Shown piece by piece: positions 1 through 38,453 of a DNA stretch of 38,453 nucleotides. This DNA is from a virus, in IMG/VR virus record IMGVR_UViG_3300029668_000007, one strand, 5' to 3'. The translations under genes were made by a program, and so were the position numbers. A model generated the notes under the pieces. The model had not been told where the DNA came from. It searched no databases and saw only the letters and a list, made by a program, of their open reading frames with translations. Position 1 is the stretch's first letter, and each line of letters opens with the position of its first letter.

Positions 1-99
1 AGAAAATCGAAATTTCTTAAACTTTTTTTGAATCGAGGAGCCGGTTGATCTCCGACAGCCGCTCATATAACCTGCGTTTTTCCGCCACCAGCGCCGCCC
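1..99. repeat. Terminal exact direct repeat, copy 1 (identical to 38355-38453)
   Basis: A base-by-base comparison shows 99/99 identity with the window end. It contains the 3' end of CDS 17-664 and the UP-like tract of promoter P3. Confidence 0.95.
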
Positions 100-664
100 G
101 GTCGAGTTTCTGGAGATCATTCGCGGGCTCCGGATCCTGCCGGGACTCCTGGGGTTGCTCCGGCGACTGCTCACGCCGGTAGGTGATCTTGTACTCGTCA
201 GCGTTGCTGCGGATGAGCCGCTGGGCCTTTTTGAGGGGGACGCGGTACAGCTCCACAACGCATCCAGCCGGGATGATGGTCATCCAGTTCATGTGGCTGC
301 CACCGCTCCGGGGCTGACCACAGGTAAAGGCCACGCCGGGGCCGATCATCGCACCGCTGTCGCGCCCTGTGGCTTTGGCTATCGTCAGGCCGCTAAGGGA
401 GATCGCTCCCCGAACGGCGGAGACGTTGTGGAGGTATTCCACGACCACTGTCGCCGTTTCTTCCGCCGGGGCCACGTCCGTCTCGCCGTAGATATCCATC
501 AGGAGCTTTCGCGCCGCCGGAAGCGCCTCCGACGGGATCACCCAGCGCCGGGAACCCGAGTCCCACCTGCCGCCCATGAGGCGGATCCGGCGGACGAACA
601 CGGAGCTGTAGGGGGTGGTGATGTAGGCCTTGCCGTCTATGGTCTCAATGGAGATCGCGCTCAT
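17..664 (-). CDS. Hypothetical early protein (215 aa) with an N-terminal GGRWD...RRWVIP motif (DUF5710-like by recollection)
   Basis: The inner ATG at 664 abuts the stop of the upstream gene at 667, whereas the ORF-track start at 751 overlaps that gene. Amino-acid composition looks coding. This is the last gene of cassette P1. Confidence 0.65.
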   Translation of the reverse strand: MSAISIETIDGKAYITTPYSSVFVRRIRLMGGRWDSGSRRWVIPSEALPAARKLLMDIYGETDVAPAEETATVVVEYLHNVSAVRGAISLSGLTIAKATGRDSGAMIGPGVAFTCGQPRSGGSHMNWMTIIPAGCVVELYRVPLKKAQRLIRSNADEYKITYRREQSPEQPQESRQDPEPANDLQKLDRAALVAEKRRLYERLSEINRLLDSKKV

Positions 665-666
665 GC

Positions 667-885
667 TCAATGCCGTTCCTGCCGGATCTCGCCGGTCTCG
701 TCGATGACCAGCGTATAGCCGCGCTTGCCGTCGTGGTAGTCCTGCTTCCATCGGCCGTCGTAGTAGGGCGCGCCGTCAAAAACGATCTCGTCCGCCTCCT
801 CCATGGTGACGTTGCAGTACAGCCAGTCGTCTACCAGCTCGACCATATCCTCGGCGGTGGTGATCTCCTGCTCGTAGGTTTCCAT
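667..885 (-). CDS. Hypothetical small acidic early protein (72 aa)
   Basis: Start METYEQE at 885 is preceded by AGAAGGAGAAAUACA. The N-terminal extension in the ORF track is R/P/G-rich junk. Confidence 0.65.
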   Translation of the reverse strand: METYEQEITTAEDMVELVDDWLYCNVTMEEADEIVFDGAPYYDGRWKQDYHDGKRGYTLVIDETGEIRQERH

Positions 886-900
886 TGTATTTCTCCTTCT

Positions 901-922
901 GCCGGGCTTTGCCCCGCCCGGC
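901..922 (-). promoter_or_regulatory. Intercistronic GC stem-loop (7-bp stem GCCGGGC/GCCCGGC, 8-nt loop)
   Basis: A perfect inverted repeat lies between the stop of 939-1187 and the RBS of 667-885. There is no U-run, so this is more likely an mRNA structure than a terminator. Confidence 0.3.
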
Positions 923-938
923 GGGGGCGTTGATCGTC

Positions 939-1187
939 TTAGTCGTTGACCCATCCCCAGCGGTCGAACCACTTTTTGGGGGCCTCCACGTAGTAGCTGT
1001 ACTCGCCAGCGGCGTAGATGCGCTCCACCTGTACGTCGTCGGGCTCACACACATCCGCCAGCGCGTCCAGCTCGGGGATCAGGGTCTCGGTGGTCACGTG
1101 TACGCCGTGGCCTTCGTCCGTGATGGGGTTCCGGCTGATCTCCATACCGTACTTTTTGGCGATCTCTTTCAGTTCGTTAATGCTCAT
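939..1187 (-). CDS. Hypothetical small acidic early protein (82 aa), first gene of cassette P1
   Basis: Start MSINELK at 1187 lies 8-9 nt after GGGAGA in the conserved leader. The upstream in-frame ATG (the MGDRTM start in the ORF track) has no SD. Confidence 0.65.
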   Translation of the reverse strand: MSINELKEIAKKYGMEISRNPITDEGHGVHVTTETLIPELDALADVCEPDDVQVERIYAAGEYSYYVEAPKKWFDRWGWVND

Positions 1188-1188
1188 T

Positions 1189-1310
1189 GTCCTATCTCCC
1201 ATGCCCGGCGGCTTATCCCGCCCGCGGCCCTTCCTTGATTACGTACTTATTATATATCAAAAATGATAAATAGTCAAGGAAAAATTCAAAATTTCTGAAA
1301 GTTTTTTGAG
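1189..1310 (-). repeat. Promoter-operator-leader cassette, copy 1 (approximate outer limits)
   Basis: It aligns with 2083-2200 and 38262-38400. The 55-nt leader is identical to copy 2. Confidence 0.9.
1249..1277 (-). promoter_or_regulatory. Promoter P1: TTGACT (1277-1272), 17-nt spacer, TATAAT (1254-1249); palindrome TATCA-AAAA-TGATA at 1255-1268 fills the spacer
   Basis: Hexamers and spacing were read directly on the minus strand. An A/T-rich UP-like tract lies upstream at 1278-1310. Confidence 0.8.
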
Positions 1311-1319
1311 TTCTCTTTC

Positions 1320-1349
1320 CCCGTACCCCGTCAATTCTCGGGGTACGGG
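1320..1349 (-). terminator. Perfect 11-bp stem-loop (CCCGTACCCCG / CGGGGTACGGG) spanning the stop codon of 1331-1744
   Basis: The inverted repeat was read directly and the stop codon lies in the 8-nt loop. No adjacent U-run follows on the minus strand, so it is at best a weak terminator or an mRNA 3' stabiliser between cassettes P2 and P1. Confidence 0.3.
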
Positions 1350-1744
1350 CTGTCCATCTGGAGGGGCTCGTCCGGGTGATAGCTGCGCCACGAGTCGTAG
1401 ATATCCAGCGCGCCGATCCTCATCCCGCCGATCATCACCGCGCCCATATCGCCGATCAGGGCCTCACAGATGGCCGTGGCCTGTTCCACGGTCAAGCTGT
1501 CGAAAAATATCCGCCGGGCTTCCCGCTCCATCACGTAGAGCGCGTCGGCCACCAGATACTCCCACTCGTCGGGGCCGTCGTCCACCCGCTGGCCCGCCGT
1601 AAAGATGTTAAAGGATTCGCCGTCGTCCCAGATCTTGGCGATCCGGGGAAGGTATTCCTTCACCCGCTCGTCGTTGAGGGTGTAGACGTAGAGTTCTCCG
1701 TTCCGGGCCTTGATGGATTCCACCAGTTTTTCCAAAGTCGTCAT
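1331..1744 (-). CDS. Hypothetical acidic early protein (137 aa)
   Basis: ATG at 1744 is preceded by CAAGGAGGAAAGAUU. Composition is coding-like and D/E-rich. This is the second gene of cassette P2. Confidence 0.7.
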   Translation of the reverse strand: MTTLEKLVESIKARNGELYVYTLNDERVKEYLPRIAKIWDDGESFNIFTAGQRVDDGPDEWEYLVADALYVMEREARRIFFDSLTVEQATAICEALIGDMGAVMIGGMRIGALDIYDSWRSYHPDEPLQMDSPYPEN

Positions 1745-1763
1745 AATCTTTCCTCCTTGCGTG

Positions 1764-2081
1764 TTATCGGTCTAAGAGTTTCTGCTGATAGTCGCTTTCG
1801 GCGACATTGATCTTGAGTGCGGTCATCACGCTGCCGACCCGGCTCTGCATGGTCGCGTCGGCCCGGACGAGCTGGAAACAGTCGATGATATCACCGGCGT
1901 AGGGGGCGTTCACAAGCGCCTCCCGGACGCGGGTCAGCTTGGCGATCAGCGCGTCCACCTTTTCAGCGGGGACGACCTTCCGGGACTCTTTGTCGGAGTA
2001 GTCGATCATGTAGTCGATGGTCTCCAAGGTGGTCTTCTGGATCTCTTCCGCCCACTTGATCTGCTTCTCAGTGCCTCGCAT
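1764..2081 (-). CDS. Hypothetical early protein (105 aa), first gene of cassette P2
   Basis: Start MRGTEKQIKWAEEI at 2081 follows the conserved leader and SD (GGGAGAUAGGACG). Confidence 0.65.
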   Translation of the reverse strand: MRGTEKQIKWAEEIQKTTLETIDYMIDYSDKESRKVVPAEKVDALIAKLTRVREALVNAPYAGDIIDCFQLVRADATMQSRVGSVMTALKINVAESDYQQKLLDR

Positions 2082-2082
2082 C

Positions 2083-2200
2083 GTCCTATCTCCCATGCCC
2101 GGCGGCTTATCCCGCCCGCGGCCCTTCCTTGATTACGGTATTATTATATATCATAAATGATAAATAGTCAAGAGGAAATTTCAATTTTTGCCTGTTTTTT
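2083..2200 (-). repeat. Promoter-operator-leader cassette, copy 2 (approximate outer limits)
   Basis: It aligns with copy 1. Over the first ~92 nt the only differences are a 3-nt patch and one operator-spacer base. Confidence 0.9.
2143..2171 (-). promoter_or_regulatory. Promoter P2: TTGACT (2171-2166), 17-nt spacer, TATAAT (2148-2143); palindrome TATCA-TAAA-TGATA at 2149-2162
   Basis: Read directly. The architecture matches P1. Confidence 0.8.
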
Positions 2201-2300
2201 TCTGGATTTTTGTACCAAAAATGCTGAAAATTTGCCCCTTCCTTTCATGGCGCTCTCTCCCCTTCTGTGGGAAGATATCCCCAGAAGGGAGCGTGAAAAC

Positions 2301-2995: not shown

Positions 2996-3766
2996 ATGGC
3001 GGATAATGATTTTTCCAGCGGCTACGCGGTAGGCGTAAGCGAGGGCCGAAACAACTCCAACGGGATGTTCGGCGATGGAAACTGGCTTTGGATCATCGTG
3101 GTCTTTGCCCTGCTGTTCGGCTGGGGTAACGGCGGCTTCGGCGGTAACCGGGGCGGACAGGGCTCGGCGGTGGACGGCTACGTCCTCACCAGCGACTTTG
3201 CCAACATCGAGCGTAAGATCGACGGAGTCAATAACGGACTCTGCGACGGCCTGTATGCTCAGGCCCAGCTGGTAAACGGTGTTCAGCAGAGCATGGCCAA
3301 CGGCTTTGCTCAGGCGGAGCTTTCCCGTTCCAACCAGCAGGCGGCCCTCATGCACCAGCTCTACACCATGGGCGCGGCCAATCAGCAGTGCTGCTGCGAG
3401 ACCCAGCGCCAGATGGAGCGGGGCTTTGCGGACGTGAACTACAACATGGCCACTCAGGCGTGCGATACCCGTAACACCGTCCAGACGGCGGCGCGCGACA
3501 TCATCGACGCGCAGAACGCCGGTACCCGCGCCGTGCTTGATTTCCTGACGCAGGACAAGCTGGCGACCCTGCAGGCCGAGAACCAGTCTCTCAAGCTGGC
3601 GGCCAGTCAGGCCACCCAGAACAACTATCTGGCGGGCGTGATGAGTCAGGAGACCAATCGGATCATCGACCGGGTGGCCCCCTACCCCGTCCCTGCCTAT
3701 CAGGTAGCCAATCCTCTGGCCGGTTGCGGCTGTAACTCGGGCTATAACGGCTGCGGCTGCTGCTGA
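2996..3766 (+). CDS. Membrane-anchored Gly/Gln-rich protein with a Cys-rich C-terminus (256 aa)
   Basis: AGGAG lies 10 nt upstream. There is one TM segment (WLWIIVVFALLFGW) flanked by G-rich tracts, a CCC triplet mid-protein, and a C-terminal GCGCNSGYNGCGCC. Confidence 0.7.
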   Translation: MADNDFSSGYAVGVSEGRNNSNGMFGDGNWLWIIVVFALLFGWGNGGFGGNRGGQGSAVDGYVLTSDFANIERKIDGVNNGLCDGLYAQAQLVNGVQQSMANGFAQAELSRSNQQAALMHQLYTMGAANQQCCCETQRQMERGFADVNYNMATQACDTRNTVQTAARDIIDAQNAGTRAVLDFLTQDKLATLQAENQSLKLAASQATQNNYLAGVMSQETNRIIDRVAPYPVPAYQVANPLAGCGCNSGYNGCGCC

Positions 3767-3828: not shown

Positions 3829-4236
3829 ATGGCCTGTAAAACTGTTTGTCGGCTCTGCGACCGGCTGGTGATCTCTCAGGCGGTCACCTTCGCGGGCGGA
3901 AACCTGATTATCAACCTCCCGGCGGGGAACTATCAAAACGGCCAGAAGTACTGCATCGTCGTGGCTCAGTCCATCCCGGATACCGCCACCATCAACGCGC
4001 CCGTGGTCGTCACCATCGGCACGGGGACGGCCCAGTACCCGCTGACCAAGGGTAACTGCGCACAGGTCACGGCCTGCGGCATCCGCACGCGCACCAAGTA
4101 CTCCGCCGTCGTCGTCACCACGGCCACCGGCGGGACGTTCCGCTTGCTGGGCCGCCCGGCTTGCGCGCCGAACAACGCCCTTGAGTCCATCAATGGGACG
4201 GATCCCGCCACTGAGGCAGGAGGTGGCACGACGTGA
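3829..4236 (+). CDS. Hypothetical Cys-containing beta-rich protein (135 aa)
   Basis: ATG 3829 (MACKTVCRLC) lies 9 nt after AGGA. The alternative ATG at 3820 abuts the SD. Composition is T/V/A/G-rich. Confidence 0.6.
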   Translation: MACKTVCRLCDRLVISQAVTFAGGNLIINLPAGNYQNGQKYCIVVAQSIPDTATINAPVVVTIGTGTAQYPLTKGNCAQVTACGIRTRTKYSAVVVTTATGGTFRLLGRPACAPNNALESINGTDPATEAGGGTT

Positions 4237-4889
4237 ATGGTATCACCATGAGGATGCTCACCCGCCCCCGCGAGGAGGAACGCCGCCCGGAGGAGACTCG
4301 CAGACGGCGGGAGCGCGACTGGCCGGAAGAGCGGCGCACGGAGGCCTACGGCTACCCGATGGAGCGCCGCATGACGGCGGATCCCTATCGGCATCAGTCG
4401 GACTACACGGAGCCGCCACGGGCGGGTCTCTATGACGGAGGCCGCCTCGGATTCGGAGCCGCCCACTACGACGGCGGCATGACCCGCGCGGACGATCACA
4501 AGCCAACGGCTATCAAGGCCACCGGCACGGTCTGGATGGACTCCCCCACAGCGGAGGAGGAAGAAACCGGCGAGATCGACCAAGAGTCGGCCATGCGCTG
4601 GGTGCAGAGCATGGAGGGGACGGATCCCAACCATCCCCGCGGCGGGAAGTGGTCACCCGAAGCGCTGAAACCTCTGGCGCAAAAGGAGGGCTTCCCCACC
4701 GACGGCCCGGAGTTCTGGGCCTTCTACGCGGTGGCCAACGCCATGTACAGCGATTACGCCGCCACGGCCAAGCGCTACGGCATCCATAGCCCGGACTTCT
4801 ACGCCGACATGGCCGCCGACTTCATCCGCGACGCGGACGCACAGCCGGACAAGGTCGAGCGCTATCTGCGCTATATCGTCCGCAAATAA
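4233..4889 (+). CDS. Hypothetical protein (218 aa): R/E-rich N-terminus, conserved-looking C-terminal domain (motif NAMYSDY)
   Basis: GTG 4233 lies 9 nt after GGAGG and overlaps the previous stop (GTGA). Alternative ATGs are at 4248 and 4254. Confidence 0.6.
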   Translation: MNGITMRMLTRPREEERRPEETRRRRERDWPEERRTEAYGYPMERRMTADPYRHQSDYTEPPRAGLYDGGRLGFGAAHYDGGMTRADDHKPTAIKATGTVWMDSPTAEEEETGEIDQESAMRWVQSMEGTDPNHPRGGKWSPEALKPLAQKEGFPTDGPEFWAFYAVANAMYSDYAATAKRYGIHSPDFYADMAADFIRDADAQPDKVERYLRYIVRK

Positions 4890-4894
4890 CAAGA

Positions 4895-4924
4895 CCCCCT
4901 GCCACATCGGCAGGGGGAATTTTT
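4895..4924 (+). terminator. Intrinsic terminator closing the cargo cluster
   Basis: CCCCCTGCC-ACATC-GGCAGGGGG is followed by AATTTTT. It overlaps the stop codon of the convergent integrase gene. Confidence 0.75.
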
Positions 4925-6485
4925 ACGCCGCCAGTTGAAATATCGCGCATCCATGATATAATAGGAAAGTCATGCAAGACTCCGTTGCTCTGGTGCAAAG
5001 GTTCGGATTATGCCGGGCTTGGTGTACCACATCCACCAAACCCGAACCAGAAATCTCCTCCCCACGGCCCGCCAGATTGTAGGCCACGAGGACAGAGACC
5101 TTCTGGTTCGGGCTTTGTTGTACCACGATCTTATTCACCAGCATATCGATCACATTTCGCATATAATCCTCATCCTCCAGACATCCATCCGCAAAACAGG
5201 ATAGCCACCGCAGGATATCCACCTCTGTCAGCTCGGGCGCGCCGCGCTGCTCATCGGCCAGCTCGGCGGCGATGCTGGCTTTGCGCCCCTCCAGCTCGTT
5301 GATGCGACCCACCAGCGTGGCGGAGGTCGCGCCCTGCTCCACCATGCGCAGTAGGTTGTCCAGCGACCGCGTCACCTCGTCCAGCTGGCGGCGGAGGGAC
5401 ACGGCGGCGCTGTCGTCCTCGGCCTGACGCTGATATTCAGCTGCGGCGGCGTGGGCCAGTGCCTTGATGTTGTCCGGGCTGAGGAGCGTCCGGGCGTGCT
5501 CCACCACCAGCCGCTCCAAGTCGTCCTTGCGGAGGGTGGGCATCTTGCACCCGAGGCGGCGCTTGCGCCCGCTGCACGCGTAGTAGTAGTACCGCGTCCC
5601 GGAGTGATTGTGGCCGCTCTCCCCCGCCATGGGCTTGCCGCACGCGCCACAGTAGAGCTTCGTGCTCAGGAGGTAGTTGATCGTGGCCTTGGTGCGCCCG
5701 GGGGCCGTCGTGTTTTTTCGGAGCCGCTCCTGTACCCGCCGGAAGGTGCCGGGGTCGACGATGGGCGGGACTTGCCCCACCAGCTCCACCTCGCCATTAT
5801 AATGATAGGTGCCGATGTACTTCCTGTTGGACAGCAACGCGTTAAAGGAGGAGCGGTTGAACGCCTTCCCGGCCCGGGTGCGGTAGCCCTGCGCGTTCAG
5901 CTCGTCCGCGATCCGGGCGAGGCTCATGCCCTCGGCGTAGCGCTCAAAGGCCAGCCGGACGGCGGGCGCGGTGGCCGGGTCGATCTGTAGCCGCTTATCC
6001 ACGGACACATAGCCAAGCGGGATGGTGCCGCCGGTGGACAGGGCCTTGGTGGCGTTCTCGTGCATCCCGCGCGTCACGTCCTGCGCAAGCGATTTGCTAT
6101 AGAACTCGTCCAAACTCTCAAAAATGCCCTCGATCAGCGCGCCCTCCGGGTTGGCGCTGATGGGCTCGCACGCGCTGACCACCTTCACGCCATTCTGCCG
6201 GAGCCGGGCCTTGTAGACGGCGCTGTCGTACCGATTCCGGGCGAAGCGGCTGAACTTGTAGACGATGACCACCTCAAAGCCCCGGCGGCTGCTGTCGCGG
6301 ATCATCCGCTGGAAATCCTCCCGGCGCTCCACGTCCCGGCTGGCGGACAGGGCCCGGTCGGTGTACGTATCCACGACCTCGTAGCCCTCCCGGGCCGCGA
6401 ATTCCTGACAGACCCGGAGCTGCCCCTCGATACTGATCTCCTGCTGCTTCTCGCTGGAGTAGCGGGCGTAGATAACAGCTTTCAT
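4923..6485 (-). CDS. int: Large serine recombinase (integrase), 520 aa
   Basis: It has the N-terminal resolvase motif VIYARYSSEKQ, a recombinase domain, the Cys cluster CGACG...YYACSGRKRRLGC, and a coiled-coil region. Size is typical of large serine integrases. Confidence 0.9.
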   Translation of the reverse strand: MKAVIYARYSSEKQQEISIEGQLRVCQEFAAREGYEVVDTYTDRALSASRDVERREDFQRMIRDSSRRGFEVVIVYKFSRFARNRYDSAVYKARLRQNGVKVVSACEPISANPEGALIEGIFESLDEFYSKSLAQDVTRGMHENATKALSTGGTIPLGYVSVDKRLQIDPATAPAVRLAFERYAEGMSLARIADELNAQGYRTRAGKAFNRSSFNALLSNRKYIGTYHYNGEVELVGQVPPIVDPGTFRRVQERLRKNTTAPGRTKATINYLLSTKLYCGACGKPMAGESGHNHSGTRYYYYACSGRKRRLGCKMPTLRKDDLERLVVEHARTLLSPDNIKALAHAAAAEYQRQAEDDSAAVSLRRQLDEVTRSLDNLLRMVEQGATSATLVGRINELEGRKASIAAELADEQRGAPELTEVDILRWLSCFADGCLEDEDYMRNVIDMLVNKIVVQQSPNQKVSVLVAYNLAGRGEEISGSGLVDVVHQARHNPNLCTRATESCMTFLLYHGCAIFQLAA

Positions 6486-6489
6486 ACGC

Positions 6490-7050
6490 TCACCCTCTGA
6501 CCGGCGAGCCGATCGCCGCGTGGCCGTAGCGGATCAATCCACGATCCCCGCCGGTCACGTCCCAAGCAAACCATAGACAGATGACGACCAAGATCACAAG
6601 CAAGGCCAGCGCCACCACGCGCCAGACGCGCATTTGCTTTACTTCGGCGCGGAGGTGCTGCTCCCGCGCCTCGATCTCCGCGGCGTGGGCCTCTTTCAGG
6701 GTTTCCAGCGTGACGGCGGCGTTCCGTTCCATTACTTCCATTTCACGCCGGTGGGCGGCCTTCATGTCGGGGACGTACTCGCTGCCATAGCTGGGCTCGG
6801 GCTGGGGATCCTCCACTTCCTCCGGCGGAGGATCCAGTGGAATGCCCAGCGCCGAACAGATCGAGAAGACCCGGTCAAAGGCGGGAACCGTCGAAGTATT
6901 CAGGAAGTTGTCGATGGTGCCTTTCGAGTTTATGGTCAGATCAGCCAGTTTTTGGGAGGATATGCCCTGCCGGGCCATTTCCGCCCTGACATGCTCCCGG
7001 AGCGCGTCCATATCATACGGCTGCATAGGATCCTGTTCGATTTTGTCCAT
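6490..7050 (-). CDS. XRE-type HTH protein with a coiled coil and C-terminal TM anchor (186 aa)
   Basis: The HTH reads ISSQKLADLTINSKGTIDNFLN and the C-terminal hydrophobic segment is VVALALLVILVVICLWFAW. The stop lies 4 nt before the int start, so the two form an operon. Confidence 0.75.
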   Translation of the reverse strand: MDKIEQDPMQPYDMDALREHVRAEMARQGISSQKLADLTINSKGTIDNFLNTSTVPAFDRVFSICSALGIPLDPPPEEVEDPQPEPSYGSEYVPDMKAAHRREMEVMERNAAVTLETLKEAHAAEIEAREQHLRAEVKQMRVWRVVALALLVILVVICLWFAWDVTGGDRGLIRYGHAAIGSPVRG

Positions 7051-8174: not shown

Positions 8175-8212
8175 GAAGACCCCCGGACACTACGTCCGGG
8201 GGTCTTCTTTTT
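8175..8212. terminator. Bidirectional terminator between the HIRAN gene and the CI-like repressor
   Basis: A 14-bp perfect stem (GAAGACCCCCGGAC / GTCCGGGGGTCTTC) is followed by TTTTT on the + strand. The last repressor codons lie inside the stem. Confidence 0.75.
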
Positions 8213-8558
8213 GCATTTGGCTGTCCAAGTATGCCAGGAATGCTTCCGCCAAGTCCGGCGGCATGTTGACCACGAACCTGACCAGCCGCTTCTTGGCCTC
8301 GCTCTGGCCCTCCATGGTGCGGGTGATGGACTGGATGTCGCTGCTCACCTGCGGGTCGATCATCTCCCCCTCGCCGGTCTCCAGCCACCGGCGGGAGATA
8401 CCGAACTCGGAACAGATGAGTTTCTTTGTCGCTTCGGTCGGTTCCCGCTTTCCGCTCAGCCACATACTGACGGCGGATTGTTGGATTCCGACGCGGTCTG
8501 CGAGCGCCGCCTGTGTGATTCCGGCCATCTGGATAATCGCTTTGATCCGATCTTTCAA
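8190..8558 (-). CDS. CI-like XRE-family repressor (122 aa)
   Basis: TTG start 8558 lies 8 nt after AGGAGG. The HTH reads ITQAALADRVGIQQSAVSMWLSGKR. The gene is divergent from the rightward early operon, with operators between them. Confidence 0.8.
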   Translation of the reverse strand: MKDRIKAIIQMAGITQAALADRVGIQQSAVSMWLSGKREPTEATKKLICSEFGISRRWLETGEGEMIDPQVSSDIQSITRTMEGQSEAKKRLVRFVVNMPPDLAEAFLAYLDSQMQKEDPRT

Positions 8559-19080: not shown

Positions 19081-20855
19081 TGAGGGGCAAATATGCGGAA
19101 ACAGTATGGAACTACGTGCAGAGCGTACTCAACGGGGAGCGGATAGCCTGCCGGGATCTGACGCTTGGGTGTAGGCGATTCGCGGAAATGGTGGAGAGCG
19201 GGAAGTACGACATCAAGACCAAGGACGCGGATTTCGTGATTGGGATCATCGAGGCGACGTTCAAACACAGGCAAGGGGAAAACCTAAAGGGCGAGCCAAT
19301 GCGCGGCAAGCCCTTTTTACTTGAGCCTTGGCAAAAGTTTTGCTTGTACGCCATGCTGATCTTCTTCAAGCCGGGGACGGAGGAGCGGCTGGTAAAAGAG
19401 GCGTTTATCTTCATCCCGCGGAAAAACAGCAAAACGCTGTTCGCGGCGGCGATTGCCTACGGGCTGGCGATCCTCGAAAGGGCCAGTGGGGCGAAGGTGT
19501 ACGTTGTAGGCGCGGCCCTTAAACAGGCCATGGAAAGCTTTGACAACTGGCGCTACAACATCGAAAACAGCCTGTACGGCAGCCGAAAAGAGGCGGAGGC
19601 GGACGGATGGAAGATCCTCAACAACAGTTTCGGGCACAGTATCAGCCATGAGAATCTGGCGGGAGGCTCCATCAGCCTGAACGCGCTGGCATCCAACCCG
19701 GACAAACAGGACTCCTTTAACTGTAATATCGTCATCGCCGATGAAATCCACGCCTACAAGACACCGAAGCAGTACAACATCCTCAAAGAGGCCACAAAGG
19801 CGTACACAAATAAGCTGGTGATCGGTATCACCACAGCGGGCGACGACGGGACGGGCTTCTGTGCACAGCGCTTGGAGTACTGCCGCAAGATCCTAAACGG
19901 GACAGTGGAGGACGATGCGTATTTTATCTTCGTGTGCTGCGCTGACGCGGACGAAGACGGAGAAGTAGATTTCACGTCGCCGATCCAGCACCAAAAAGCA
20001 AACCCAAACTACGGGATCACAATCCGACCCGCGGACATCATGAACGATGCGCTGCAAGCTCAAAACGACCCACAGCAGCGTAAGGATTTCTTTGCCAAGT
20101 CGCTAAACCGCTTCACGGCGGCGCTCAAGGCGTATTTTGATGTGGAGGAGTTCAGGCGTAGCAACAGGAAAGCGGAGGAGGCGCTGGGAATCAAGCCGGA
20201 GTGGCCGACGGAGAGAAAAATGCGGGCTCTTGCGGCGCTGCGCGCGGACTGGTATGGAGGCACAGACCTGTCCAAACTGCACGACCTGACGGCGGCGGCG
20301 CTGGTGGCACACTATAACGGGATCGATATCATCATCACACATGCATGGTTTCCAATCGTAGCGGCAGCCAAAAAGGCGGACGAGGACAATATTCCCCTGT
20401 TCGGCTGGCGTGATGACGGCTGGCTGGATATGTGCAATGCACCGACCAACGACGCGACGACCGTCGTCAACTGGTACAAGGCCCGGAAAAAGGATGGATT
20501 CAAGATCCGCCAAGTCGGGCACGATCGAAAGTTCTGCCGCGAATATTTCCTTGAGATGAAACGGGCGGGTTTCCGAATCGTCGATCAACCGCAGTATTTC
20601 TACAAGAAAAGCGAAGGCTTTAGGCACATCGAGAGTCAGGTGAAGAATAACCGCCTGTATTACCTCGGAAGCGAAGCCTACGAGTACTGTGTGCAAAACG
20701 TCCGAGCTATCGAAAAAACGGACGACATGATCCAATACGAGAAGATCCAGCCACAGCACAGGATCGACCTGTTTGACGCGTCGGTCTTTGCGGTGATACG
20801 GATGCTAGAAGACATGGAGAGGATAAGCGATGCAAAAAGCTGGATGGATGAGTAA
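19077..20855 (+). CDS. terL: Terminase large subunit (592 aa)
   Basis: The size and position fit. There is a P-loop-like IPRKNSKT and a Walker-B-like IVIADEIH, and the start overlaps the terS stop. Confidence 0.9.
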
Positions 20856-36499: not shown

Positions 36500-36694
36500 A
36501 TGGAGCACGGGCGGCAGGATTACGAGAGGGTCATTGATCTGTGGGTGCGCTCAGAGCGTGACCGCAGGGCGCTGAAACGTAAATACCTCGACGGCATCTG
36601 CTACGAGCAGATCGCCGACGAGCTCGGAATCAGCCCTAGAACCGTGCAGAACATCGTCAACAGGTGGCGGGGAACAGTAGAGCGCCACCTATAA
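36500..36694 (+). CDS. Small sigma-70 region-4-type HTH protein (64 aa)
   Basis: GGAGGG lies 7 nt upstream. The motif is RRALKRKYLDGICYEQIADELGISPRTVQNIVNRW. Confidence 0.6.
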   Translation: MEHGRQDYERVIDLWVRSERDRRALKRKYLDGICYEQIADELGISPRTVQNIVNRWRGTVERHL

Positions 36695-36700
36695 AAACAA

Positions 36701-36730
36701 ACGCCGGGGATTATTCCCCGGCGTTTTTTT
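36701..36730. terminator. Bidirectional intrinsic terminator between the late operon and cassette P3
   Basis: ACGCCGGGGA-TTAT-TCCCCGGCGT is flanked by an A-run upstream and T7 downstream. The stop codon of the minus-strand HTH gene lies in the loop. Confidence 0.85.
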
Positions 36731-36944
36731 GCTGCATTAAATCGTCCATCTGACACCCAAGCGTCTGCGCCATCAGGCTCAGCGCGTGGGAGGAAGGAGA
36801 ACAAAACCCGTGCTCCCATCGGGAGATCGCCAGCGGCTTGCATCCGACTGCTTCCGCCAGCTGGGCTTGGGTCAGCCCGGCGGCGATACGGGCGGCGGCG
36901 ATGGGACTTTGTGCGCCACGGGCGCGGGGACTAGTTCTGGCCAT
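36711..36944 (-). CDS. XRE-family HTH protein (77 aa), last gene of cassette P3
   Basis: ATG 36944 lies after AAGGAGGAAUCCC. The HTH reads LTQAQLAEAVGCKPLAISRWEHG. Confidence 0.75.
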   Translation of the reverse strand: MARTSPRARGAQSPIAAARIAAGLTQAQLAEAVGCKPLAISRWEHGFCSPSSHALSLMAQTLGCQMDDLMQQKNAGE

Positions 36945-38055: not shown

Positions 38056-38261
38056 CAGATCCTCGAGCCTTCCCGGACGATGATCTCATCCTGACAATAA
38101 TCATCATCCGTGGTACACACGGCGATGCGGACTTCCAGCCCGTCGTTCTCGGCCTTTTTTGCTTCCTGCCGGGCCATGCGGAGCGCCTCGCGCTTCACGG
38201 TGCTGCCGTTATCGGAGGCGTAGTTGCTGCCGACCTGTACCGCGTACCAATTCCTGCTCAT
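38055..38261 (-). CDS. Hypothetical small protein (68 aa), first gene of cassette P3
   Basis: ATG 38261 lies 9 nt after AGGAG in the diverged leader copy. Confidence 0.65.
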   Translation of the reverse strand: MSRNWYAVQVGSNYASDNGSTVKREALRMARQEAKKAENDGLEVRIAVCTTDDDYCQDEIIVREGSRI

Positions 38262-38400
38262 CGTTGTATCTCCTATCGCCCGGCGGCTTGTTCCGCCCGC
38301 GGCTCCTTATTGATTACGATATTATTATATATCAAAAATGATAAATAGTCAAGGAGAAAATCGAAATTTCTTAAACTTTTTTTGAATCGAGGAGCCGGTT
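38262..38400 (-). repeat. Promoter-operator-leader cassette, copy 3 (approximate outer limits; runs into the terminal overlap)
   Basis: It aligns with copies 1 and 2. The promoter and operator are near-identical and the leader is diverged, but the GC stem is retained. Confidence 0.85.
38324..38352 (-). promoter_or_regulatory. Promoter P3: TTGACT (38352-38347), 17 nt, TATAAT (38329-38324); palindrome TATCA-AAAA-TGATA at 38330-38343
   Basis: Read directly. The architecture matches P1 and P2. Confidence 0.8.
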
Positions 38401-38453
38401 GATCTCCGACAGCCGCTCATATAACCTGCGTTTTTCCGCCACCAGCGCCGCCC
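38355..38453. repeat. Terminal exact direct repeat, copy 2 (identical to 1-99)
   Basis: Identity is 99/99. It includes a duplicate of the 3' end of CDS 17-664 (38371-38453), which should not be counted as a separate gene. Confidence 0.95.

Follow-up and report, generated by a model that had tools for sequence, protein, structure and literature searches.

The virus record IMGVR_UViG_3300029668_000007 is a 38,453-nucleotide (nt) stretch of DNA, referred to here as the window, and all positions given below are those of the whole window. We found that three direct repeats in this stretch probably represent one regulatory cassette, present three times in a swappable accessory module that would be governed by a 77-amino-acid (aa) XRE-type repressor, with nested transcripts. 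Comparison of sequences supports the core of the initial annotation, which had read the repeats as a promoter-operator-leader cassette under a second repressor and had listed the XRE gene as a candidate.

Three copies of a promoter-operator-leader cassette

The repeat finder returned one direct-repeat family with three copies of about 110 nt, located at 1185 to 1294, 2079 to 2188 (90% identical), and 38260 to 38369 (75% identical). In a self-comparison these copies were spaced by 894 nt and, across the circular junction, by 1,279 nt, in agreement with the 894 nt and approximately 1.28 kb given previously. Alignment on the minus strand gave one order of parts for every copy: A/T tract, −35 box, spacer, −10 box, leader, GGAGATA, and ATG. 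Together with the pattern searches, this confirmed that each repeat combines an A/T tract, promoter, palindrome, hairpin leader, Shine-Dalgarno (SD) sequence, and start codon, as described in the initial annotation.

A promoter scan located TTGACT-17-TATAAT, which matches the consensus at 11 of 12 positions, at 1277 to 1249, 2171 to 2143, and 38352 to 38324. Within the 17-nt spacer of each promoter lies the palindrome TATCA-N4-TGATA. A genome-wide pattern search found exact matches to it at the three cassettes only (1255 to 1268, 2149 to 2162, and 38330 to 38343), and allowing one mismatch added a single match at 19640, against a chance expectation of 0.26. The palindrome had been said to fill the spacer exactly; this needs correction, as it covers 14 of the 17 spacer positions and adjoins the −10 box.

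The layout does not vary between copies: 20 nt separate the −10 box from the hairpin, 3 to 4 nt separate the hairpin from GGAG, and a further 8 nt lead to the ATG, so that the −10 box and the ATG are 61 to 62 nt apart in each. On the minus strand, the P2 cassette begins with an A/T-rich, UP-like tract (2172 to 2232, from the alignment), followed by the core promoter at 2143 to 2171 (−35 box TTGACT, 2166 to 2171; −10 box TATAAT, 2143 to 2148), with the predicted operator TATCATAAATGATA in its spacer. Its leader hairpin, GCCGCGGGCGG-GATAAG-CCGCCGGGC (2097 to 2122), precedes GGAG at 2090 to 2093 and ATG at 2079 to 2081. P1 has its A/T-rich tract at 1278 to 1310, its core promoter at 1249 to 1277 (−35 box, 1272 to 1277; −10 box, 1249 to 1254), the predicted operator TATCAAAAATGATA, and a hairpin at 1203 to 1228 that is followed by GGAG (1196 to 1199) and ATG (1185 to 1187). 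The P3 core promoter occupies 38324 to 38352 (−35 box, 38347 to 38352; −10 box, 38324 to 38329), again with TATCAAAAATGATA in the spacer, and its hairpin at 38278 to 38303, with the loop AACAAG, is followed by GGAG (38270 to 38273) and ATG (38259 to 38261). The A/T tract of this third copy extends over the 3′ end of B3, the gene upstream of it (stop codon at 17 to 19, equivalent to 38371 to 38373).

The A/T tracts upstream of all three cassette promoters also hold the only genome-wide matches (two to three mismatches allowed) to AATTTTCWGAAAATT, which we take to be the CodY-box consensus. These matches lie at 1289 to 1303, 2218 to 2232, and 38364 to 38378 (equivalent to 10 to 24), with 0.2 expected. 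They could be a site for a host regulator or could simply arise because the UP-like sequence is A/T-rich while the genome as a whole is GC-rich.

Two contigs of about 160 kb, L070 (minus strand, around 7471) and L071 (around 3723), carry consensus promoters with the same leader start as the cassettes (TATAAT-N5-CGTAATCAAG). There, CGTAATCAAG is followed by a purine-rich tract and GGAGAT, without a GC hairpin and without an obvious palindrome in the spacer. This leader start may be a general feature of strong promoters in these hosts. We rejected CGTAATCAAG as a third operator half-site, since it is kept even where the operator is entirely different.

The spacer palindrome changes together with an in-operon regulator

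We searched viral and metagenome collections with pattern scans and with protein queries and assembled dozens of related loci. A search of related phages for the cassette next to different cargo had been suggested earlier, and such loci were indeed found. The leader (CGTAATCAAG, hairpin, and SD) also occurs behind promoters that have differing perfect palindromes in their spacers, in at least five further forms. Loci with TATCA-N4-TGATA encode a helix-turn-helix (HTH) protein that is 95 to 100% or 63 to 67% identical to C3, the 77-aa XRE-type protein of the window (36711 to 36944). With TATCC-AAAA-AGATA we found a C3-type HTH protein that is 70 to 75% identical to C3, and with TATACCGC-AA-GCGGTATA a C3-type HTH protein whose recognition helix reads CTQKDV in place of CKPLAI. 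The operators TACCACTCA-T-TGAGTGGTA and TACGCA-A-TGCGTA are accompanied by an unrelated 115-aa protein. This protein has two versions, and 12 of the 18 substitutions between them fall in residues 68 to 95.

The small HTH regulator remains the terminal gene in the relatives. One phage, L077, amounts to a natural swap: it has the cargo of the window (C1 97% and C2 98% identical) but the TATCC operator and the HTH protein of the 70% type. Distant operons, reached through homologs of B3, place ATCCA-TT-TGGAT or ATGGTCA-T-TGACCAT in the spacer of a consensus promoter. Because the in-operon regulator changes with the palindrome, while the phage's CI and HTH-TM proteins do not, the 77-aa XRE protein is the likeliest repressor of the three promoters. 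The comparison across these phages also supports the spacer palindrome as the predicted operator of a repressor other than CI.

Another distant relative with a B3 homolog, L206, has a different repeated regulatory element in its accessory region. The motif TGGAATTT-N4-5-CGCC-N-AATC recurs there at 3680 to 3720, 4240 to 4290, and 5600 to 5650, in front of three consecutive genes.

A swappable module with probable nested transcripts

Phage L064 shares about 96% identity with the window over the segment running down from 7909 to 2228, and the identity resumes leftward from 36730. Between 2228 and 36730, across the circular junction, the only alignable sequences are a stretch of about 70 nt that starts at the −10 box and takes in the leader (84 to 87%) and a fragment of C2. 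In phages that share this backbone, homology stops at 2228, inside the P2 A/T tract. From these alignments, we conclude that the locus is one swappable accessory module of about 3.85 kb with sharp borders at 2228 and 36730.

Close relatives have the three cassettes and the same cargo, save for gene insertions and deletions. Homologous recombination had been put forward as a means of deleting, duplicating, or swapping cassettes. Shuffling as an evolutionary process is supported, because cargo of the same kind recurs behind differing operator types in related phages: C1 behind TATCA and TATCC operators, a 145-aa MKYEVEV protein behind TATCA and TATACCGC operators, and B2 homologs behind several operator types. 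Simple deletion between two cassette copies, on the other hand, was not seen among the close relatives.

Each promoter is followed by a short series of genes on the minus strand. P2 precedes two (A1, 1764 to 2081; A2, 1331 to 1744), P1 precedes three (B1, 939 to 1187; B2, 667 to 885; B3, 17 to 664), and P3 precedes three more (C1, 38055 to 38261; C2, 36931 to 38055; C3, 36711 to 36944). The terminator scan found a single intrinsic terminator in the locus, a bidirectional one at 36699 to 36726 (fold z = −3.5) that closes the locus directly after the C3 gene, and no canonical intrinsic terminator between the units. The three units had been described as separate, but they are probably not independent. 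Since the only terminator stands after the HTH gene and no canonical one stands between units, nested read-through transcripts that end in the repressor gene are likely. Upstream of P1, a perfect 11-bp GC hairpin without a U-tract overlaps the A2 stop codon (1320 to 1349, minus strand). Found from sequence and folding and absent from the terminator scan list, it could serve to stabilize the 3′ end, to process the transcript, or to terminate transcription in part. Folding revealed no hairpin in the interval from B3 to P3.

We propose that the module works as follows. Each copy presents a near-consensus sigma-A-type promoter whose 17-nt spacer holds the 14-bp palindrome TATC(A)-N4-(T)GATA, and this palindrome would be the operator for C3, the XRE-type HTH product of the last gene of the locus. 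By occupying the DNA between the −35 and −10 boxes, a C3 dimer would obstruct RNA polymerase. With transcripts from P2 and P1 reading through, all three promoters would feed the repressor gene, and the repressor would in turn shut all three. The expected outcome is a burst of expression upon entry, followed by a low, self-limited level.

Proteins encoded by the module

C3 is an XRE or Cro/CI-type protein, matching Pfam HTH_3 with an E value of 7.5e-12 (45.5 bits; cutoff, 23). Its nearest solved structures are the DNA-binding domains of the P22 C2 and 434 repressors (E values of about 4e-4), and its N-terminal tail contains Arg.

The seven remaining proteins form the cargo. A1 (105 aa; isoelectric point [pI], 5.5), A2 (137 aa; pI 4.3), B1 (82 aa; pI 4.5), and C1 (68 aa; pI 5.0) have no known family. 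B2 (72 aa; pI 4.1) is very acidic and recurs as cargo of other cassette types. In all, five cargo proteins are small and four of these five are acidic (pI 4.1 to 5.0). B3 (215 aa; phrog_18108) has an N-terminal domain with local matches to DUF5710 and to XPB-type (XPB-N-like) domains, and its stop codon lies within the P3 A/T tract. Its AlphaFold model has a predicted local distance difference test score of 87, and fold searches of the PDB and of viral structures returned uncharacterized viral proteins as the only full-length matches. C2 (374 aa) is basic and has 18 Cys residues; by eye, we identified several CxxC...YCSxxC zinc ribbons (weak YacG/PhnA-like matches) and two RSPxGxxY...GW repeats. 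Homologs of C2 in L056, L064, L066, L067, and L077 lie at the distal end of cassette operons that have other operators, and C2-related proteins are sometimes found as a tandem pair with the domain order reversed.

None of the seven cargo proteins belongs to a family in Pfam, NCBIfam, or PADLOC or to a PHROGs function class, the three that were compared with PDB sequences gave no match, and every public source names them as hypothetical proteins. The cargo is also hypervariable between phages that are otherwise identical. By analogy, we tentatively regard the seven as genes for counter-defense or another host interaction, a reading to which we give slightly less than even weight.

The leader hairpin as a proposed RNA-level module

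The 26-nt module GCCGCNGGCGG-N6-CCGCCGGGC was found by genome pattern search only in the three leaders (0.13 expected). As reported before, leaders 1 and 2 are identical, and copy 3 has diverged in the loop (GAUAAG to AACAAG) and the flanks while keeping both stem strands. In 26 distinct hairpin sequences, most of them gathered with patterns that fix the stem, all nine pairs are always paired; seven are invariant, and two show one-sided changes from C to U that yield G.U pairs. A further scan, anchored on the flanks and making no assumption about the stem, returned no alternative stem in family members. Among 17 distinct hairpins there are 12 different loops (pattern RDNAAR), and the bulge base varies (G, A, or T). 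Covariation was absent from the metagenome and genome scans even with purine/pyrimidine-degenerate stems, where most matches were chance occurrences in unrelated taxa, and the genome scan found the hairpin element in none of the representative bacterial genomes. The case for selection on the stems, for structure or as a binding site, is therefore weaker than was proposed: all pairs are kept, but the changes in them are one-sided and none is compensatory.

Evidence for an RNA-level role comes from the position of the hairpin. It always lies on the sense strand, 3 to 4 nt before the SD and 15 to 16 nt before the start codon, and this includes promoter-less copies between genes (in L025, L007, L068, and L145). 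A purine-rich, SD-like tract is often found upstream of it. The same hairpin accompanies C3-type HTH proteins, the unrelated 115-aa protein, six operator forms, and loci with neither regulator. In L068 and L125, for example, the hairpin is present without a detectable homolog of C3, C2, or sig64 in 11 to 14 kb, and no phage protein among sig64, C2, C3, B3, C1, and B2 always accompanies it. Taken together, we interpret the hairpin as a separate RNA-level module that depends neither on the promoter nor on the regulator present; the RNA-level role is suggested by its position, namely, sense-strand, SD-proximal, and kept in promoter-less intergenic copies.

Different GC hairpins take up comparable positions elsewhere. 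In the window, a 7-bp hairpin, GCCGGGC-N8-GCCCGGC (901 to 922, minus strand), folds 2 nt ahead of the SD that serves the internal gene B2. The distant relative L211 has other GC hairpins before the SDs of internal genes, and two of these differ by a G-C to C-G swap.

Several known kinds of element were considered and set aside. Rfam 15 gave no match in the whole window at the gathering score, and a permissive search of 1150 to 2260 gave two matches far below threshold, both outside the leader. An intrinsic terminator or attenuator does not fit, as there is no U-tract, a purine-rich SD sequence follows, and the hairpin is absent from the terminator scan. An RNase III site was rejected on argument, the stem being too short. 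A site for antitermination resembling lambda boxB (5-bp GC stem and purine-rich loop) was rejected because each unit has its own promoter and there is no conserved boxA-like partner. One variant, GCGGGAUAAACCG, is presumably similar to the 3′ end of a CRISPR type I-E repeat, but mimicry of that repeat was rejected since the loop varies freely. An integron attC-like site was rejected as well, given the wrong cassette end and the lack of an integron integrase.

As to what the module does, we see an even chance that it stabilizes or insulates the translation start region. It is more doubtful whether hairpin and SD form a portable posttranscriptional control element that is recognized in trans by a host RNA-binding protein or RNase or by a conserved phage protein. 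If they do, accessory and counter-defense genes of many gut phages would share a second layer of control, independent of their own repressor.

Alternative explanations

Several observations weigh against the model of a thrice-used cassette under C3. Compared with composition-matched shuffles, the hairpins of copies 1 and 2 are not unusually stable (z of about −0.3) and that of copy 3 has z = −2.0, although the hairpin is clearly stable in the AT-richer phage L068 (z = −3.3). None of the nine stem pairs shows a compensatory change in the 26 distinct sequences. A single metagenome collection supplied most of the relatives, which are close to one another, so some operator-regulator pairings do not represent independent events. 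For the alternative 115-aa regulator, Pfam gave no HTH match. Operons with the TATCC and TATACCGC operators also hold a second HTH protein (168 to 183 aa), which is a possible binder there. Finally, profile and sequence searches and the B3 fold search matched no cargo protein to a known anti-defense or defense family.

Other explanations of the locus concern its regulator and its cargo. Prophage immunity control would have CI (8190 to 8558) or the membrane-anchored HTH-TM (6490 to 7050) bind the palindrome and silence the locus in lysogens. Both are HTH proteins of the same phage, and the CI operator region contains the pentamer TATCA inside ATATCACAAAA, yet we consider this explanation extremely improbable. 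HTH-TM, which the initial annotation had offered alongside the XRE gene, is excluded by copies that are 97 to 99% identical in phages with TATCA, TATCC, and TACGCA operators; it was also not found in three contigs that have the TATCA operator, although one of these, 25 kb long, is possibly incomplete. CI occurs on one backbone with three different DNA-binding domains, and the TATCA operator is found with two of them, as is the TATCC operator. The immunity-region operators are TCACAAAA..TTTTGTGA repeats with another spacing, and the pattern search found no TATCA-N4-TGATA site in that region. The prior claim that the cassette operator differs from the CI operators and implies a second repressor is consistent with this uncoupling, and of the two candidates named for that role it is the XRE gene that accompanies the operator and varies with it. 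With the regulation left as we propose it, the cargo could instead consist of lysogenic-conversion genes (superinfection exclusion, host defense, or physiology) that the autorepressor holds at a low, steady level in the lysogen. An accessory arm beside the attachment site of an integrated prophage is the classical position of a moron, autorepression yields steady low expression, and the cargo lacks a match to known anti-defense proteins. Against this stand the search of 5,027 defense-system models, in which only generic HTH matches were found; the small, mostly acidic, and hypervariable nature of the cargo; and the pairing of very strong promoters with an in-operon repressor, which is the pattern of anti-defense operons (PMC13551039). 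We regard lysogenic conversion as rather unlikely, and as less probable than a counter-defense or other host-interaction role.

Two further explanations concern the hairpin. It could be a second binding site of the operon's HTH regulator, which would then bind both promoter DNA and mRNA to repress translation. Aca1 and Aca2 do bind hairpins in 5′ untranslated regions (UTRs), and such motifs are found before several neighboring operons and between genes (PMC13551039); moreover, the hairpin here abuts the SD, and C3 has Arg in its N-terminal tail. However, the RNA motif of Aca1 and Aca2 coevolves with the protein, whereas the hairpin sequence here is unchanged across regulator families and six operator forms. 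Its stem, GGCGG/CCGCC, is unlike the TATCA/TGATA operator, and in L068 and L125 it occurs where no such regulator was detected. This makes recognition by the HTH regulator quite unlikely. A shade less likely still is that the element acts as DNA, either as an inverted repeat bound by another protein or as a place downstream of the start where recombination or pausing occurs. In its favor, GGCGG-N6-CCGCC is palindromic at the DNA level too, and invariant stems without compensatory changes are what sequence-specific recognition would produce. A DNA site does not account for the constant strand and the fixed spacing to SD and start codon, even in promoter-less copies. Both stem substitutions are C to T, which keeps G.U pairing in RNA but breaks the palindrome in DNA, and in the more distant relatives the pre-SD position is taken by other GC hairpins, including the pair that differs by a G-C to C-G swap.

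The CI gene of the window (8190 to 8558) is itself mosaic. In L226 to L231, the C-terminal portion of about 75 residues is nearly identical, and it is joined to three N-terminal HTH domains with the recognition regions QQSAVSMW, TGAAISRI, and GMSAVSLL. The exchange of immunity types is therefore not coupled to that of the accessory module.

Relation to known regulatory systems

The model of one in-operon repressor acting at three promoters resembles Aca control, in which the promoter of anti-CRISPR (Acr) or anti-defense operons contains an inverted repeat that is bound by a small HTH protein from the operon itself (PMC13551039). A 5′ UTR hairpin is a further target of Aca1 and Aca2. Neighboring operons can be preceded by up to three pairs of operator and RNA motif, with only one of these operons encoding Aca, and RNA motifs are also intergenic (PMC13551039). 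This multi-operon control was described by Feussner et al. (Nucleic Acids Research, 2026; PMC13551039), and Aca-regulated operons were also described by Birkholz et al. (Nucleic Acids Research, 2019; PMC6765145). The locus studied here is similar in several respects. A small HTH gene ends an operon of small accessory genes, with C3 before the only terminator; an inverted repeat overlaps the strong promoter in three of three cases; the predicted transcription start lies a few nt past the operator and is followed by a 5′ UTR hairpin; operator-plus-hairpin pairs precede adjacent operons, as many as three, with the regulator in only one; and hairpin motifs also occur between genes. From the joint change of operator and regulator, we predict operator binding and promoter repression by the in-operon regulator, as in Aca.

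There are also differences. No cargo gene is a known Acr or anti-defense gene, and the best match of C3 among Aca proteins with solved structures is Aca3, with an E value of 0.054 that reflects generic HTH similarity. Unlike the Aca1 and Aca2 motifs, which track the protein, the hairpin here is neither tied to the regulator nor operator-like, and it abuts the SD, whereas the Aca motif ends about 20 nt upstream of the start codon. Because the architecture is shared, yet the cargo includes no known anti-defense gene, the regulator is not recognizable as any named Aca, and the hairpin does not track it, we suggest that the locus works like an Aca-controlled multi-operon locus and do not claim strict Aca membership, which would entail a proven Acr association.

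In archaeal viruses, a conserved early regulatory sequence precedes many anti-defense genes (Bhoobalan-Chitty et al., Nature Communications, 2024; PMC11065993). That system likewise repeats a promoter-plus-regulator motif before several accessory gene sets and can serve as bait for new genes, but it differs in having archaeal promoters, a different regulator, and no reported hairpin-SD module (PMC11065993). On these comparisons, the locus is a further member of a recently described class rather than a new kind.

Parallels to single features are found in other systems. The 434 repressor recognizes a palindromic operator of 14 bp, in which two 5-bp arms flank a center of 4 bp, and TATCA-N4-TGATA shares this 5-4-5 layout. 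Unlike the 434 and P22 C2 repressors, C3 has no C-terminal dimerization or cleavage domain; its gene lies outside the immunity locus, and the lysis-lysogeny switch is not under its control. In the 5′ stabilizers of Gram-positive bacteria and their phages (the ermC and aprE leaders, the phage SP82 stabilizer, and the cryIIIA STAB-SD), a 5′ stem-loop, ribosome binding, or both block decay that depends on the 5′ end. The hairpin here is instead about 13 nt from the predicted 5′ end and also sits between genes.

If the model is true, the cassette would be a search handle, and genes found behind it in gut Bacillota phages would be candidates for counter-defense or host interaction; at least a dozen unannotated protein families already lie behind it. 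It would also mean that control of several neighboring operons by one repressor, described in 2026 mainly in Proteobacteria and in Streptococcus elements, extends to uncultured, high-GC phages of gut Firmicutes. Swaps of operator and regulator on a constant backbone provide matched natural pairs for HTH-operator specificity. The regulator-independent hairpin is the sole feature that known systems leave unexplained.

Genome context

The assembly is circular, as the repeat finder showed positions 1 to 99 to be the same as 38355 to 38453, and the unit is 38,354 bp with a GC content of about 60%. The large terminase is nearest to those of Bacillota siphophages, e.g., Geobacillus phage GBSV1 (61%), and we classify the genome as that of a temperate Bacillota phage whose host is a gut bacterium. 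Among GenBank phages, window positions 1 to 2300 have no DNA match, and the C3 HTH protein occurs in one unannotated human fecal phage record.

On one side, the locus borders lysis genes and a small sigma-like gene (36500 to 36694). On the other side are five rightward genes and then a serine integrase. An integrated copy, L236, on a 158-kb human gut contig places the attachment site near 4890 to 4920, because bacterial genes begin directly beyond the homolog of 4233 to 4889. The attachment site is probably at the bidirectional terminator between gene 4233 to 4889 and the serine integrase gene. This placement puts the locus in the accessory arm, with about 2.7 kb between it and the prophage end. 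Of the five rightward genes, which separate the cassette locus from the attachment site, one (2996 to 3766) encodes a 256-aa protein of phrog_16490 with a Gly/Asn-rich N terminus, a membrane-like segment, and the C terminus CGCNSGYNGCGCC.

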